A stretch of DNA of 64,000 nucleotides, taken from assembly GCA_045127235.1 (NCBI GenBank), contig JBGVPY010000022.1:102889-166888 (forward strand), given 5' to 3'. The notes below the pieces were generated by a model, which searched no databases, was not told where the DNA came from, and worked only from the letters and a program-made list of their open reading frames with translations. How positions within the stretch are numbered: position 1 is the first letter of the stretch; every line of letters begins with the position of its first letter. A program made the translations under genes and the position numbers. Shown here piece after piece: positions 5,471 to 62,091 of the stretch. This DNA is from Eubacteriales bacterium (GTDB lineage Bacteria > Bacillota > Clostridia > Oscillospirales > CAG-272).

Positions 5471-6910
5471 TTAAAATAATTCGCTAAAATCTTTAGCACT
5501 AGTAACTATATAATATTTACTATCAAAGTAAAAATGGGTAGCATCATAAACAATAATTTCACCTATCTTACCATTAAGAGTTATAGGATATAAAACATCT
5601 GAATAATTAAAGTCTTGTTCTCTATCTCTTATAAATTCCAAACCTTTTATATCAAAAGTAACTTCTTGATTATCTTTATCAGTTATAATACTATCATTAC
5701 AATTAAAACAAGCCACAGCAAGTGCACTTGACCATGAAGGCGATTTACTACAAGAATACCATTTACCATTATAATAGAACATATCACATTCAAAATGTGC
5801 TAGGATTCCTATGTTCTTTCCTGTTTTATCTCTAATTTCAATTTCCCATCTTACATGAAAATTATCTAAATCAGTAGGTGGTTGATCACTTTCAATTAGT
5901 ATACAATCTTCTCGAAAAAGTGAATTAAACCAAAAACTTATCGTATCGGATTCATTTACATAAAGTATTTCATCGAATTTGTAATTTGAAGCTGGTGTAT
6001 GAATCTTAGATAATTTTATTGAAGTGTTTTCTGGATTAGAAATATAATATGAAAGTTCAGGAATTACATCTAAAAATGGTCCAATATTTATTTCTTCTAG
6101 TGGAGTTTGTTCATCAGGTGGTGTTTGTTCATCAGGTTCTTTTGGAATAGGTTCAAGATAAAACAAATTTAAAATATAATTCTTTTCAGAATTTACATAA
6201 AAATTTTTCTCGTAATAATAACATTCTCCTTCTTCAATGTTATCTAAAATAATAACCTCGTTATCAACATTTATTTTAACTGCGTTAACACCGATATTTT
6301 CTGCCATGAGATCAATTTCTTTAGAATCATCTACAAGTTTGATGTAACCTTCTGTAATAATCACATTAGCTTTTTTTATGCTGTTAGGCATATATCTTTC
6401 TTCCCAACTACGAACTTCTTCTCCCAAATATTTTAATTGATCATTATATTGTTCTTGATCAACAGATCCACCATCAAACTTTCCCCTACTTATAAATTCA
6501 TAACTTATGCCTTTATATTCAAATGCTAATGTATCTTCATAATAACCACCTGTACCAATAGCTTCTATTTTTTCTCCATTCTCAAGTGTTATATATATTG
6601 TCGTATTTTCTATACCATTATTTTTAGTTTTATAAGTACCTTTAAATTCGGGTTCGTCAAACGGTTTGAATATAAGAGTATTGTCTTCTTCAAAATCTAT
6701 ATAAGTCGTTTGTGAATGCATACCATTGATATTCCAATAGCCAATACCATGCCCTATCACTGTTTTTAGTGTATTTCCGTTAATATAAGTTACATCCTTA
6801 TATACGTGATTAATTGCCCAAGAAAATTCATGAGGAACAATTGTACAAGATGTAAGAATAGTAATTAAGGAAAGCAATATAAACAATAAAATAAATTTTG
6901 TTTTCTTCAT
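5471..6910 (-). CDS. Hypothetical lipoprotein
   Basis: 479-aa ORF. Signal peptide with lipobox LTSC (MKKTKFILLFILLSLITILTSC). No family recognised. Confidence 0.7.
   Translation of the reverse strand: MKKTKFILLFILLSLITILTSCTIVPHEFSWAINHVYKDVTYINGNTLKTVIGHGIGYWNINGMHSQTTYIDFEEDNTLIFKPFDEPEFKGTYKTKNNGIENTTIYITLENGEKIEAIGTGGYYEDTLAFEYKGISYEFISRGKFDGGSVDQEQYNDQLKYLGEEVRSWEERYMPNSIKKANVIITEGYIKLVDDSKEIDLMAENIGVNAVKINVDNEVIILDNIEEGECYYYEKNFYVNSEKNYILNLFYLEPIPKEPDEQTPPDEQTPLEEINIGPFLDVIPELSYYISNPENTSIKLSKIHTPASNYKFDEILYVNESDTISFWFNSLFREDCILIESDQPPTDLDNFHVRWEIEIRDKTGKNIGILAHFECDMFYYNGKWYSCSKSPSWSSALAVACFNCNDSIITDKDNQEVTFDIKGLEFIRDREQDFNYSDVLYPITLNGKIGEIIVYDATHFYFDSKYYIVTSAKDFSELF
6105..6140. repeat. 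Two tandem 18-nt units inside the lipoprotein gene (encode PDEQTP PDEQTP linker)
   Basis: gtttgttcatcaggtggt / gtttgttcatcaggttct, 16 of 18 nt identical. Confidence 0.9.
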
Positions 6911-57769: not shown

Positions 57770-59518
57770 TTGGAGAAAAAGAAGAATGGGCTTTTGAAAA
57801 GATTTTTGCCTTACTATAAAAAATACGGTTGGATAGTGGCTGTTGATTTGCTTTTTGCAGCACTTACAACGCTATGTGAAATTGTTTTGCCGCTTTTAGT
57901 TAAGGAAATCACAAACAAGGCTATGAATGATGTGGCTGCATTAACTATTGACTTTATTTTAAGAATTGGAATTTTCTATATTGTTTTAAGAATTATAGAC
58001 ACAGGGGCTAACTATTTTATGATTTCTATCGGTCATATTATGGGTGCTAAAATTGAGACTGATATGCGTAGAGATTTATTCGCACATCTTGAAAAGCAAT
58101 CACATTCATTCTATGACAACACGAAGGTAGGCTCACTTATGTCAAGAATGACTACTGACTTATTTGAGGTTACGGAGTTTGCCCATCACTGCCCTGAGGA
58201 ATTTTTCATTGCAGGAATTAAGATAATTGCTTCATTTATAATTTTAATTCGTGCCAACGTTATACTTACTCTTATTACCTTTGCTATTATTCCTTTAATG
58301 ATAATAACTATGGTAAGATTTAGGCGCACCATAAAGAAAAATTTTGCGGACAGTAAAAAGCAGATTGCAAATATTAATTCACAAATTGAGGATAGCTTAT
58401 TAGGCATTAGAGTAACAAAAGCGTTTGCAAAGGAAGACCTTGAAAACGAAAAGCACAACAGAGACAACTGTCAGTATTTGAAGTTAAAAACTGAAAGATA
58501 TTACTCAATGGGTAGATTTAATTCTACTACCAGATTGCTTGACGGTATTATGTATATTGTGGTTGTGCTCTTTGGCGGTATTTTTCTTGTGAATGGGGAC
58601 ATTACTGCTCCTGATTACGTTGCTTATTTGCTTTACGTTTCAACACTTCTTACATCGGTTAGAAGAATTATAGAGTTTACAGAGCAATTTGAAACGGGTA
58701 TGAGTGGTATTGACAGATTTATTGAAATTATGGACACGGAGCCGGAAATTGTTGACAAGGACGGGGCTGTAAATTTAGATGATGTCAAGGGACAAATTGA
58801 GTTTAAGAATGTTTCATTTAGTTATGAGGCTGAAAAGGGCGAGGTTATTACTAACTTAGATTTAAGTATAAAATCCGGAGAGAGTGTGGCACTTGTTGGT
58901 CCTTCGGGTGGGGGCAAGACTACTCTTTGCGCACTTATTCCTCGTTTTTACGAGGCTACAAGCGGTGAGATTTTAATTGACGGCTTAAATATTAAGGATG
59001 TAACCTTAAAATCATTAAGAGAAAACATTGGTGTTGTGGCACAGGATGTATATTTATTCTCGGGTACTATTAAGGAAAATATTGCTTATGGTAAGGACAA
59101 TGCAACTGATGAGGAAATAATCGCGTCTGCTAAAATGGCGGGAGCGCACGAATTTATTGAAGCGCTACCAAATGGGTATGATACTTATGTGGGAGAGCGT
59201 GGCGTTAAGCTATCCGGCGGACAAAAGCAAAGAGTTTCCATTGCAAGAGTATTCCTTAAAAATCCGCCTATACTTATTCTTGATGAGGCCACAAGCGCAC
59301 TTGACAATGAAAGCGAAAGACTTGTGCAAAAATCTCTTGAGGAGTTATCCAAGGGTCGAACAACTATTACTATTGCACACAGACTTACTACTATTAAAAA
59401 TGCGGATAGAATTTTGGTGCTTACGGAAAATGGTATAGAGGAAAGCGGCACGCATAAGGAGCTTATTGAGAAAGACGGTATATATGCTGAGTTATATAAG
59501 CTATATGCTACAATTTAA
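57770..59518 (+). CDS. ABC exporter, fused permease + ATPase (MsbA/multidrug type half-transporter)
   Basis: 582 aa with a 6-TM N-terminal domain. Walker A GPSGGGKTT, signature LSGGQKQRVSIARVF, Walker B ILILDEATSALD. TTG start after RBS AGGGGGGA. Confidence 0.85.
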   Translation: MEKKKNGLLKRFLPYYKKYGWIVAVDLLFAALTTLCEIVLPLLVKEITNKAMNDVAALTIDFILRIGIFYIVLRIIDTGANYFMISIGHIMGAKIETDMRRDLFAHLEKQSHSFYDNTKVGSLMSRMTTDLFEVTEFAHHCPEEFFIAGIKIIASFIILIRANVILTLITFAIIPLMIITMVRFRRTIKKNFADSKKQIANINSQIEDSLLGIRVTKAFAKEDLENEKHNRDNCQYLKLKTERYYSMGRFNSTTRLLDGIMYIVVVLFGGIFLVNGDITAPDYVAYLLYVSTLLTSVRRIIEFTEQFETGMSGIDRFIEIMDTEPEIVDKDGAVNLDDVKGQIEFKNVSFSYEAEKGEVITNLDLSIKSGESVALVGPSGGGKTTLCALIPRFYEATSGEILIDGLNIKDVTLKSLRENIGVVAQDVYLFSGTIKENIAYGKDNATDEEIIASAKMAGAHEFIEALPNGYDTYVGERGVKLSGGQKQRVSIARVFLKNPPILILDEATSALDNESERLVQKSLEELSKGRTTITIAHRLTTIKNADRILVLTENGIEESGTHKELIEKDGIYAELYKLYATI

Positions 59519-59537
59519 CGATTTCTGCACCTCATCC

Positions 59538-59573
59538 GTCAGCTACGCTGACACCTTCCCCTCAAGGGAAAGG
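59538..59573. other. GC-rich dual-hairpin element in the exporter 3' flank
   Basis: GTCAGC-tac-GCTGAC (59538-59552) followed directly by CCTTcCCC-tcaa-GGGaAAGG (59554-59573). Much more GC-rich than its surroundings. Confidence 0.5.
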
Positions 59574-59579
59574 CTACTA

Positions 59580-59621
59580 GGTGTTTACGCTGAGCTTTAC
59601 AAATTGTATGCGAATATATAA
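59580..59621 (+). pseudogene. 13-codon + stop relic duplicating the exporter C-terminus (GVYAELYKLYANI*)
   Basis: Translates to GVYAELYKLYANI*, against the real C-terminus GIYAELYKLYATI* at 59477-59518. It is in a different frame, and most codons differ only synonymously. Confidence 0.6.
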
Positions 59622-59655
59622 AAAATATCAAGGCTTTTCTGCCTTGATATTTTTT
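59620..59655 (+). terminator. Rho-independent terminator (copy A of a duplicated hairpin)
   Basis: AAAAAATATCAAGGC-ttttct-GCCTTGATATTTTTT. Confidence 0.85.
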
Positions 59656-59656
59656 G

Positions 59657-59685
59657 TTGACATAAAAGTTTTCCTATGCTATACT
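59657..59685 (+). promoter_or_regulatory. Consensus-like sigma-A promoter of the small membrane-protein gene
   Basis: TTGACA-17 nt-TATACT with a TGn extension, immediately after terminator copy A. Confidence 0.6.
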
Positions 59686-59706
59686 GAAATAAAGAGGTGA
59701 TGAATT

Positions 59707-60162
59707 TTGCAAAAGGCTTTTAAAATTTTAAACTCTGTTTATGTATTTGCTTCTCTAATCGGCACCATGCTTTTTCTTTTCGGTGAAGGTTTTTTGATTT
59801 TGAACAAAGCTAATTTATTTGTTTTTTTCATTCCTTTATCATTGGTGTTCATTTCTTTGTTGTTATTATTTGTATTTGACAACACCGATTCTGGTTTTTT
59901 CGCCAATTTAATTCCTTGGTCAATAGTTTTATTGTTTGATGTTTTGATTCTATGGAGCTTGTTTATATATTTAAAGAAAAACAAATTTCTTATGATTTTT
60001 ATAATGTACATTACCGACATAGCTGCTCTTTTTTTGTTTTGCGATTTTGATGTATTCTCTTATAGCGTTGCTTTGAGATTAATAATAAAATTAATATTCT
60101 TAGGAGTTTTAATTGCTCATTTTGTTATACATAGAAAAAATATCAAGGCTAATTTGCCTTGA
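59707..60162 (+). CDS. Hypothetical small multi-pass membrane protein
   Basis: 151 aa, 4-5 hydrophobic helices. TTG start 7 nt after RBS AAAGAGGTGA. The stop lies inside terminator copy B. Confidence 0.55.
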   Translation: MQKAFKILNSVYVFASLIGTMLFLFGEGFLILNKANLFVFFIPLSLVFISLLLLFVFDNTDSGFFANLIPWSIVLLFDVLILWSLFIYLKKNKFLMIFIMYITDIAALFLFCDFDVFSYSVALRLIIKLIFLGVLIAHFVIHRKNIKANLP

Positions 60163-60170
60163 TATTTTTT
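60135..60170. terminator. Bidirectional terminator (copy B of the duplicated hairpin)
   Basis: AAAAAATATCAAGGC-taattt-GCCTTGATATTTTTT. Both arms are identical to copy A. It contains the stop codons of both convergent genes. Confidence 0.85.
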
Positions 60171-60487
60171 ATTATAAAGTCTTTTAGTGGGGTTTGCTCC
60201 GTGGTGGTTAAAACATAGCTATCCAAGCATTTATAGCCGTTTTCTGCTTTGGTGATCAGGTCAATTTTTTGTGCGCGTGTTAGGTGCTTTTTTATGTAAA
60301 ACTCGCGTTTTTGCGCTTCGATTGGTGTATCAAGGATTTCAAAATAGATTAGCTCAACGGGTGTGCGTGAGTGTGTATATTTTGCGCCCTTGCCACTATT
60401 ATGGGAGGTTAGTCTTTTGATTATGTCATTGGTCCAGCCTGTGTAAAGCGTATTATCGCTACATTTTAGTATATATACGAAGTTCAT
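60149..60487 (-). CDS. GIY-YIG nuclease-domain protein (UPF0213/YhbQ-like)
   Basis: MNFVYILKCSDNTLYTGWTNDIIKRLTSHNSGKGAKYT is the GIY-YIG core. The ATG at 60487 forms an ATGA overlap with the upstream gene's stop. Confidence 0.75.
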   Translation of the reverse strand: MNFVYILKCSDNTLYTGWTNDIIKRLTSHNSGKGAKYTHSRTPVELIYFEILDTPIEAQKREFYIKKHLTRAQKIDLITKAENGYKCLDSYVLTTTEQTPLKDFIIKNIKAN

Positions 60488-61371
60488 TTGTCTTCTTTTC
60501 TTTCTTTTATAAGCTGATATATGCCATATGCAGTTAAACATACTGCGCCCACATCCAATACTATACCAAGCCACATAAACGCTTTTGCTTCAAACAACAT
60601 TAATCGTTGCGAGTCGTCGAAATTTAATAGCTCCTTGCTTTCTGTTTTTAGCTCTACTATATAGTCTGTGGTTGGATTTATTAATACATATAGCTTTTCT
60701 CCCTTATGTAAGGCTTTTAAACCGTCGAGAATTTCGACATACGCACAGCATTGGTGGATAGTATGCTCTGTTTCGTCCTCGAAAATTATATCTACATAGC
60801 CCTGACCGTCCTGATTATAGCTACTGTATATGCCTTCATATCGCTGAGTTTCTTCCTTTGCAATTGGTTTATACCTATTTGGCATAGTAATAAATATTAT
60901 TGAAATAAGCACGCACAAAACTGATATTCCTATCATAAAAAGCGGTGAGTCATCCTTATCAAAGCTAATTCTTTTTTTGCCTGTTCTATGATTTTCCATA
61001 GGTAGGCATAATCTTTGCTTTACAATAAAGTGAAGTGCAGAATAATTAGAGTGAAAATACTTTCCTATTTCTAAAAGCTCGCTATTTTCTCTTGCGTTAT
61101 TGGTTACATTTAAAAAAATATAATTTTTGTCTTTAAATATTACCGCATAGCCGTTTGAAAATACAAGACAGCGCTTTAATTCCTTATATCCGTAATTTAG
61201 GTCTATTCTATTGTTGTTAGCTGAATACCAAATATGCATACCGTCCTCTTCAAGCTCAAATTTGGCTTCATCGGTTATGCTTAAATCAAAAATACATTTA
61301 TACTTTTTTAATTCCTTTGCATCTAAGGCTGATACGATTTTCTTATATTTTGTATCTATTAAAAGCTTCAA
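60484..61371 (-). CDS. Hypothetical two-TM membrane protein, translationally coupled to the GIY-YIG gene
   Basis: 295 aa from the TTG at 61371 (RBS GAGGTGA). TM helices LFMIGISVLCVLISIIFITM and AFMWLGIVLDVGAVCLTAYGIY. No family recognised. Confidence 0.5.
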   Translation of the reverse strand: MKLLIDTKYKKIVSALDAKELKKYKCIFDLSITDEAKFELEEDGMHIWYSANNNRIDLNYGYKELKRCLVFSNGYAVIFKDKNYIFLNVTNNARENSELLEIGKYFHSNYSALHFIVKQRLCLPMENHRTGKKRISFDKDDSPLFMIGISVLCVLISIIFITMPNRYKPIAKEETQRYEGIYSSYNQDGQGYVDIIFEDETEHTIHQCCAYVEILDGLKALHKGEKLYVLINPTTDYIVELKTESKELLNFDDSQRLMLFEAKAFMWLGIVLDVGAVCLTAYGIYQLIKERKEDK

Positions 61372-61393
61372 TTTGATCACCTCGGTATGAAAT

Positions 61394-61422
61394 AGTATAA
61401 CACAGTTGCATTTATTTTGCAA
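61394..61422 (-). promoter_or_regulatory. Sigma-A type promoter embedded in a perfect 10-bp inverted repeat
   Basis: Minus strand reads TTGCAA-17 nt-TATACT with a TGn extension. The inverted repeat CACAGTTGCA-n7-TGCAACTGTG (61401-61427) covers the -35 hexamer and the spacer. Confidence 0.5.
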
Positions 61423-61530
61423 CTGTGATATATTAAAATTAGAAAATTTTGCAATTTCTTGTAACCTTTGCATTTTATTTCCTGTCTATTAGGGTGAAGT
61501 GCTTCAATGCTTTCGAAAGGGGGAATCTTT

Positions 61531-62091
61531 ATGGAAGATAGTAAGATAGTTGAATTGTATTTACAAAGAGATGAAAATGCTATAAAAGAAACCAAAGAAA
61601 AATATGAAAAATACTGTTCTTATATTGCTAACAATATTTTAAATTCTACTCTTGATACAGAAGAATGTGTCAATGATACTTATTTAGCTACATGGAATTC
61701 TATACCGCCAAATAAACCAAAAAGCTTGCGCGCTTATGTTGGCAAGATTGTAAGGAATATTGCTTTGAACAGATATAATGCAAATAAGGCGAAAAAGCGT
61801 AATGACGGTATAGAGGTCGTGCTTGATGAGTTAAATGAGGTTATTGGCGACAGTGAGAGTGATGGGCGTAATTTAACTGATGAGATTACGCTAAAATATG
61901 CTTTGAATGCTTTTGTTGGCTCGCTTAAGCAAGAGACAAGAGAGATTTTTGTAAGAAGATATTGGTATTTAAGCCCCATAAAGGAAATTGCCTCTGATTA
62001 CGGACTTAAAGAAAGCAAGGTAAAGGTTACACTTTTAAGAACTCGTGAGCTTTTACGAGAGTTTTTAAGAAAGGAAGGAATTGTAATATGA
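61531..62091 (+). CDS. ECF-type sigma-70 family RNA polymerase sigma factor
   Basis: 186 aa. Region 2-like block NDTYLATWNSIPP...YVGKIVRNIALNRY and a region 4 HTH (PIKEIASDYGLKESKVKVTLLRTRELLREFL). RBS AAAGGGGGA. Confidence 0.8.
   Translation: MEDSKIVELYLQRDENAIKETKEKYEKYCSYIANNILNSTLDTEECVNDTYLATWNSIPPNKPKSLRAYVGKIVRNIALNRYNANKAKKRNDGIEVVLDELNEVIGDSESDGRNLTDEITLKYALNAFVGSLKQETREIFVRRYWYLSPIKEIASDYGLKESKVKVTLLRTRELLREFLRKEGIVI

Follow-up and report, generated by a model that had tools for sequence, protein, structure and literature searches.

A displaced second 3' end of an ABC exporter gene, very probably a young recombination scar beside a variable cargo region in a Clostridia genome

The ATP-binding cassette (ABC) exporter gene at positions 57770-59518 of a 64,000-nucleotide (nt) stretch of a Eubacteriales genome (contig JBGVPY010000022.1; the whole stretch is called the window hereafter) is followed, 61 nt beyond its stop codon, by a second version of its own last 13 codons and stop. 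This displaced copy (59580-59621), which we call the ghost, corresponds to a live gene end in other genomes. Some relatives have an empty site, they are polymorphic for the arrangement, and the locus is mosaic. The ghost is very probably a non-functional scar, that is, the last 13 codons, stop and terminator of one exporter allele, displaced by 103 nt through an out-of-register join between two diverged alleles where the exporter gene meets a variable cargo region; we infer the recombination pathway that is set out below. The feature is real and its explanation ordinary, with no new mechanism or function involved: the scar is young, and the kind of event, displacement of an allelic gene end, is already known.

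The exporter gene, defined from its open reading frame (ORF) and translation, lies on the plus strand and encodes an MsbA-like protein of 582 amino acids with fused membrane and ATPase domains (Pfam ABC_membrane and ABC_tran); its NCBIfam matches are MsbA-like, each of them under the equivalog cut-off. The live end, of a type termed E1, comprises the final 13 codons and TAA (59477-59518, plus strand) and reads GGT ATA TAT GCT GAG TTA TAT AAG CTA TAT GCT ACA ATT TAA, encoding GIYAELYKLYATI*. The ghost, of type E2 and by our reading a former gene end, likewise has 13 codons and TAA on the plus strand, in the +1 frame relative to the live gene, and reads GGT GTT TAC GCT GAG CTT TAC AAA TTG TAT GCG AAT ATA TAA, encoding GVYAELYKLYANI*. 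Its orientation is that of the gene, the 5' part of which is absent from it; its ORF is intact, and the +1 frame is open from 59466. The two ends are identical at 11 of 13 amino acids and at 29 of 42 nt, and the 13 nt differences are distributed 3/1/9 over the three codon positions. Their longest common identical run is the 6-nt GCTGAG, which is too short for judging a crossover core.

The coordinates, sequences and identities of the two ends had been given in an earlier sequence-only reading of the window and were reproduced exactly, as was its statement that most differences are synonymous (9 of 13 at third codon positions). The similarity also withstood comparison with shuffled sequence. 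In 20,000 shuffles of the 200 nt 3' of the stop, the top match to the 13-residue peptide reached 7/13, against 11/13 for the ghost, and a six-frame scan of the window (∼128,000 positions) gave a runner-up of 6/13. Both would once have been live ends under purifying selection, which explains why they differ almost exclusively at synonymous sites. A duplication in situ, or a long target-site duplication with later divergence of the copies, would agree with the presence of direct repeats on either side of an inserted repeat unit. However, in 20,000 drift simulations with 13 nt differences the copies came to differ by 6.7 amino acids on average, and at most two amino acid differences together with an intact ORF occurred at a frequency of ≤5e-5. 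Moreover, each version is live in separate genomes, the repeats are 42 nt long and only 69% identical, and other copies of the repeat unit are devoid of such flanking repeats. We therefore hold a duplication of this kind to be scarcely conceivable, and the earlier exclusion of a recent target-site duplication stands.

The comparison set included a graded series of exporter orthologues, and 177 orthologous loci served for the survey of ghosts and of downstream partner genes; the nearest named records are uncultured Clostridia metagenome-assembled genomes from ruminant and other animal guts. In L191 and L192, whose exporters share 97% amino acid identity with that of the window, the gene ends GGA ATT TAC GCT GAA CTT TAC AAA TTG TAT GCG ACT ATA TAA, again encoding GIYAELYKLYATI. 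The ghost is identical to this live end at 38 of 42 nt. There the stop is immediately followed by a hairpin of the type that follows the ghost in the window (T1, described below), and then by a GIY-YIG gene that runs convergently and has its final codons within the hairpin; this locus is an empty site. The last 27 nt of the ghost also agree at 26 of 27 positions with the live end of L088/L089 (95%), and in L085, L090, L091 and L193 (81-84%) the live stop is directly joined to a T1-type hairpin. As the earlier reading had proposed, the ghost derives from the 3' end of another allele, one shaped by constraint on the protein.

The live end of the window has relatives of its own. It matches that of L196 (98% amino acid identity), a locus with neither repeat unit, ghost nor cargo, at 37 of 42 nt, and that of L002 (83%) at 36 of 42, compared with 29 of 42 for L191. 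Measured against L191, mismatches amount to 6.7% in the gene body, 31% in the live end of the window (p = 3.5e-6) and 10% in the ghost, the last value being not significant. Against L196 the picture is mirrored: the body differs at 5.4% of positions, the live end at 12% and the ghost at 29%. In the alignment, the raised divergence is limited to the final 42 nt of the gene. Both end types are live in close relatives and therefore represent ordinary alleles, which the window holds in tandem.

A full-length ghost was found in the window alone among the 177 loci. Most close relatives, L191/L192 and L196 included, have a single C-terminus, so that loci of the kind sought since the sequence-only reading exist and the duplicated arrangement is not shared by all relatives. 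The relatives recovered from metagenomes by a protein-based scan were all ≤65% identical and served solely as negatives for ghosts. The intactness of the ghost is explained by its youth, as it differs by no more than 4 nt from the live version in a relative. The intact ghost ORF and the +1 frame open from 59466 could also be taken to mean that the cell uses the ghost as an alternative C-terminus, through frameshifting, ribosome hopping or DNA rearrangement. However, nothing would be gained from a nearly unchanged peptide, read-through in the +1 frame adds ∼37 unrelated residues, and L002 and L086 retain no more than a truncated ghost, with most relatives having none. With youth accounting for the intact frame, we give such a use next to no credence. 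In an RNA fold prediction, live-end positions 59507-59516 (GCUACAAUUU) pair with ghost positions 59600-59611 (AAAUUGUAUGC) in a long-range stem that encloses the repeat unit; this predicted pairing is probably a coincidence of two codon choices.

Tandem heterodimeric ABC exporters are common in Firmicutes. The ghost could accordingly be the remnant of a deleted tandem partner half-transporter of which the last 13 codons survived, its left border being a simple deletion end point; the sequence-only reading had offered this as an alternative. However, a same-strand ABC gene downstream of the exporter occurs in 0 of the 177 orthologous loci, and what the ghost matches, at 38 of 42 nt and with a terminator in common, is the orthologue's own live end in L191. 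This alternative was abandoned as exceedingly improbable.

The two ends are separated by a GC-rich spacer of 61 nt (59519-59579, plus strand; 54% G+C in a region of 36%), in which a 9-nt linker (CGATTTCTG) precedes a 47-nt unit (59528-59574) and TACTA forms the junction. The dual hairpin that the sequence-only reading had placed at 59538-59573 was located as GTCAGC-TAC-GCTGAC (hairpin 1, 59538-59552) and CCTTCCCC-TCAA-GGGAAAGG (hairpin 2, 59554-59573). In the unit, hairpin 1 is preceded by CACCTCATCCG, separated from hairpin 2 by an A and followed, after hairpin 2, by a C. L002 has a block corresponding to linker and unit in the same position (89% identity across 99 nt), and a degenerate unit stands at the corresponding site in L086. 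Scanning metagenomes for the exact junction of stop, linker and unit gave 0 matches.

The unit belongs to a widespread family. In viral contigs, 96 stretches fitted a search pattern for the unit (loci L095-L190), and together with copies in other loci we obtained 114 distinct copies. The family follows the pattern CACCTCATC[CA]G, a variable hairpin, then [CG]CTTCCCCTCAAGGGGAAG[GC]C. Its outer motifs are conserved, and hairpin 1 is free in sequence and constant in structure: among 85 distinct versions, 93% fold with ≥4 bp, compared with 38% of shuffled sequences. Covariation is seen in the closing pair of hairpin 2, which is C:G in 82 copies and G:C in 24. The copies are dispersed and mostly intergenic, usually right after stop codons (..TGA|CACCTC) and often arrayed with other palindromic units; their hosts are mostly GC-rich, compared with 36% G+C in the present genome. 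An Rfam search of 59300-59800 found no family for the unit and nothing meaningful, the curated phage records held just one copy, unannotated, and a literature search by the core sequence of the unit found no paper containing that core. Judged by sequence and predicted structure, the unit can be classed as a REP-like repeat (after the repetitive extragenic palindromic sequences) of Clostridia and their phages, and the family is apparently undescribed. The sequence-only reading had asked whether the dual hairpin is repeated elsewhere in the genome and marks recombination junctions. It is a member of this widespread family; no second copy lies within the window, and among the ∼110 other copies examined there is none that has beside it a synonymously diverged version of the preceding gene's end or, apart from tandem arrays, flanking repeats. 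The ghost therefore belongs to the present locus and not to the repeat family.

On its 3' side the ghost is fused to a terminator, as had been seen before. The stop codon of the ghost (59619-59621) overlaps the left arm of hairpin T1 (59620-59655), a perfect 15-bp stem (59620-59634 and 59641-59655) with the loop TTTTCT. The fold prediction extends it to a 17-bp hairpin followed by TTTTTT, a stable stem containing G and C with a T-run, as in rho-independent terminators. A simple terminator scanner did not flag T1 because the T-run forms part of the stem, and the A-run before and the T-run after the hairpin make it potentially bidirectional. A hairpin homologous to T1 sits straight after the live stop in L085, L090, L091, L191 and L193.

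A second and older scar appears to lie next door. The 43-nt segment 59616-59658, which comprises the end of the ghost and the hairpin, is repeated directly at 60131-60173 with 88% identity. This second copy (T2, loop TAATTT) includes the gene-end vestige ATAGAA within a stop-region vestige of the exporter at 60131-60140, and in its loop and right flank T2 is identical to the terminator behind the live stop of L191. T2 and its vestige look like an older displaced gene end, left by an event similar to the one behind the ghost. The two repeats flank a promoter-like site on the plus strand (59657-59685; TTGACA-17-TATACT, an 11/12 match with TG) and the ORF that it precedes, a hydrophobic ORF of 151 amino acids (ORF151; 59707-60162, plus strand) without a family match, the last codons of which (RKNIKANLP*) run into T2. 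ORF151, for which no DNA match was found in 12 related loci, is a cargo cassette between duplicated terminators.

L002 presents a comparable order: the live end is followed by linker and unit and by an 18-nt ghost remnant (TTG ATT GCG ACA TTA TAA) with a terminator behind it; a Flg_new gene comes next, and a TATATAA vestige then precedes another terminator. In L086, a ghost remnant of ∼18 nt stands after the degenerate unit and before a T1-type terminator. The duplicated terminators and vestiges in the window and in L002 suggest that displaced ends, each with its own terminator and cargo, were stacked more than once. The L002 terminators, at 5835-5856 and 6693-6714, flank the Flg_new gene (5861-6631, minus strand), and the second of them resembles T1 of the window in its loop (TACTCT versus TTTTCT) and right flank.

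Further downstream, the cargo of the window continues with a small gene of the GIY-YIG nuclease family (60149-60487, minus strand; 112 amino acids; Pfam PF01541, E = 4e-18), which ends inside T2, and with a gene without assigned function (60484-61473, minus strand) annotated as a 329-amino-acid ORF. The true start of the latter probably lies 34 codons later (295 amino acids; 60484-60588), because its homologue in L193, with 87% amino acid and 91% nt identity, aligns from residue 35. The right border of the variable region is the gene of a sigma-70 factor of the extracytoplasmic function (ECF) type (61507-62091, plus strand), which is conserved there in all relatives. Between the exporter and sigma-factor genes, the relatives carry no gene, a 395-amino-acid gene, GIY-YIG alone, GIY-YIG with the 295-amino-acid gene, the latter alone, Flg_new, or Flg_new with a 297-amino-acid gene, that is, at least five different cargo sets or none; the window has the promoter-like site with ORF151 (membrane), GIY-YIG and the 295/329-amino-acid gene. 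In L191/L192 and L193-L195 the GIY-YIG gene lies 5-12 nt from the exporter stop.

The cargo of the window (60149-61473) is 90-91% identical in nt to L193 4755-5983, compared with 79% for the exporter bodies and 72% for the hydrolase genes, and this excess points to a recent exchange of cargo between diverged lineages. The backbone of the window (hydrolase, rubrerythrin, exporter body and sigma factor) is nearest to L196 and L087 (92-98%), and the ghost with its terminator to L191 (91%). The locus is a mosaic recombination hotspot bordering hypervariable cargo. The exporter gene is mosaic as well: nt 1276-1650 of the gene (window 59045-59420) are 90-98% identical to L084, whose gene is elsewhere ∼75% identical, and form an internal recombination tract. 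In another pair of exporters, proteins P0002 and P0004, 2 of the 13 final residues differ despite 98-99% identity overall, which suggests that the gene tip is exchanged often.

As a scar of allelic recombination, the ghost would have arisen as follows. One parent would have given the gene body with end E1, the 9-nt linker and the REP-like unit, and the other would have given end E2 from its Gly codon on, the terminator and the cargo genes. The setting would most likely have been an exchange of cargo between the exporter and ECF sigma-factor genes, with one homologous crossover in the conserved flank and one illegitimate joint at or beside the GC-rich hairpin unit, a process named homology-facilitated illegitimate recombination (HFIR), or 3'-end displacement. 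At least one earlier event of like kind would have produced the duplicated terminator and stop vestige around ORF151. The protein remained unchanged because both end types encode GIYAELYKLYATI when live, and the event would thus have been selectively silent. As to polarity, either an incoming segment with body, E1, linker and unit displaced the resident E2, terminator and cargo, or incoming E2, terminator and cargo were joined behind the resident E1, linker and unit.

Several observations weigh against this reconstruction, or leave it with more than one version. The signals of polarity are opposite, the ghost looking native in comparison with L191 and the live end in comparison with L196. The sequence-only reading, which had favoured an incoming gene with its own stop and flank that left the resident end behind, agrees with the first comparison and not with the second. 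Its broader proposal, replacement of the exporter by another allele or cassette, is upheld as regards the displaced allelic gene end; however, nothing indicates an exchange of the exporter as a whole, the raised divergence being confined to the last 42 nt. Because the cargo 3' of the ghost has itself been exchanged between lineages, the ghost may be either the resident end or a donor end that hitch-hiked with the cargo. The E2-terminator type of parent is represented by L191, but no ghost-free parent with live end, linker and unit was found among ∼190 related loci, and all three unit-bearing alleles have a ghost remnant, so that the unit may have come together with the duplication. There is no clear microhomology at the junction GGCTACTA|GGTGTT. 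Finally, the unit blocks of the window and L002 are 89-91% identical, and their exporter genes only 78%, which calls for a later transfer or for constraint on the block. A single event that homologous recombination then spread may lie behind the arrangements in the window, L002 and L086, or two to three such events may have taken place independently.

Some of these features could also be expected of a site-specific integrative element, a prophage or island, that entered at the exporter 3' end carrying its own version of the last 13 codons and later lost its interior, leaving 61 nt. The model for such a scar is the Escherichia coli icd - e14 (or phage 21) - icdC arrangement, in which a prophage in the 3' end of the isocitrate dehydrogenase gene brings a replacement end and reduces the original to a pseudogene fragment (PMC13626634, citing Hill et al. 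1989). The likeness is close: in both cases two versions of a 3' end stand in direct orientation with mainly synonymous differences, the live end lies beside foreign DNA, the protein is preserved and the displaced downstream copy is dead, and recombination between the copies could restore a single chimeric end. The spacer of the window is compositionally foreign and belongs to a repeat family abundant in phage-like contigs, and the failure to find a unit-bearing allele without a ghost would fit as well. However, E. coli has a 15-kb prophage with an integrase between the copies, and here there are 61 nt; neither in these nor in the adjacent cargo is there a gene for an integrase, a recombinase or any other part of an element. 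No core common to both copies stands out, their longest identical run being the 6 nt that are too short for a judgement. No viral contig of IMG/VR carries linker plus unit, the back-translated gene end or an attP-like mimic, and four viral-contig matches to the linker and the start of the unit are due to chance. Moreover, no relative has a large insert within the flanks of 3-4 kb, and L196 is only one of many relatives in which E1 occurs as an ordinary live allele. We consider an integration scar unlikely.

Another way to explain the presence of a corresponding block at one site in the window and in L002, even though nearer relatives of L002 have empty sites, is that the 103-nt block of gene-end copy and REP-like unit is a small mobile module that repeatedly inserts into the exporter end and patches it, or else that the terminator hairpin is an attachment site for cassettes. 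The better conservation of the block than of the flanking gene, and the cassettes between duplicated terminators in two lineages, are in line with these ideas. However, homologous recombination in a mosaic population accounts for the patchy distribution, a duplicated gene end is missing at ∼110 further copies of the unit, and no recombinase is present. With regard to an attachment site, every duplicated terminator bears a stop-region vestige of the exporter, which fits displaced gene ends and not an autonomous site, and the lack of a switch in GC skew speaks against a dif or terminus site. The mobile module and the attachment site are both very improbable. It is likewise very improbable that a dedicated, hairpin-dependent insertion process produced the block and the neighbouring cassettes between duplicated terminators by targeting the exporter 3' end or terminator and repairing the gene with its own copy of the end, whether as a miniature self-patching module or as a cassette system without a recognisable recombinase, and that it acted independently in the lineages of the window, L002 and L086.

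Two specific candidates found no support. T1, with its two arms and 6-nt centre, was considered as a dif/Xer-type site at the replication terminus, but GC skew is positive on both sides of it. The GIY-YIG protein was considered as a homing endonuclease driving the exchange; it consists of a 112-amino-acid catalytic domain only, its gene has either end type as a neighbour (L191, L193), and the scar-bearing L002 and L086 lack it.

Displacement of an allelic gene end by recombination, the explanation that we favour, has its closest parallel in the orphan tips of rhs and contact-dependent inhibition (CDI) loci and in the sequential displacement of effector-immunity modules of type VI secretion systems (T6SS), for which HFIR has been proposed and in which old 3' ends and downstream genes are pushed back (PMC5361080, citing de Vries & Wackernagel 2002 and Prudhomme et al. 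2002 for HFIR). As in those arrays, the gene is conserved in its 5' part, a new 3' end would have come from an incoming allele, and the old 3' end and the genes downstream of it are shifted further downstream and retained. The remnants are likewise nested, here as the 42-nt ghost and then the ATAGAA vestige, each with a terminator and cargo. Unlike in the rhs and T6SS arrays, the displaced piece amounts to only 13 codons and specifies a near-identical peptide in place of another toxin domain. The gene concerned encodes an ordinary ABC exporter, no toxin/immunity genes can be recognised in the cargo, and the remnant has no apparent selective role.

REP sequences and bacterial interspersed mosaic elements (BIMEs) occur in Enterobacteria and Pseudomonas. 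The 47-nt unit resembles them in being short, structured, GC-rich, palindromic and present in many dispersed copies, although the window has just one. REP sequences were reportedly found by Shyamala et al. in 1990 at the join points of tandem duplications in Salmonella, and the unit described here likewise sits exactly at a recombination joint. Unlike known REPs, however, it has an unrelated sequence and no Rfam family, and its hosts are Clostridia and their phages.

The locus provides a base-resolved example of how the exchange of accessory genes among related gut Clostridia leaves short fossil gene ends, and it unites an empty site, both parental end types live in relatives and an older scar in the neighbourhood. 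Scars of this sort can be mistaken for frameshifted genes, small ORFs or regulatory elements, but as markers they can help to date and orient recombination events. In addition, the analysis draws attention to an apparently undescribed, widespread REP-like repeat that lies exactly at the joint.

Two minor observations concern the terminators and the repeat unit. The palindromic terminator codes for the same peptide on both strands (window 60135-60170; L191 4755-4790): inside the T2 hairpin, the GIY-YIG gene on the minus strand ends with ..KNIKAN* and ORF151 on the plus strand with ..KNIKANLP*. In L078, a 61%-identical orthologous locus, an ORF of the DUF559 nuclease family (Pfam E = 3e-32) starts on the exporter stop with an ATGA overlap. 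Behind this ORF stand two composite elements in tandem, each of them ∼190 nt long with inverted copies of the REP-like unit at its two ends (the whole spanning 5746-6460).

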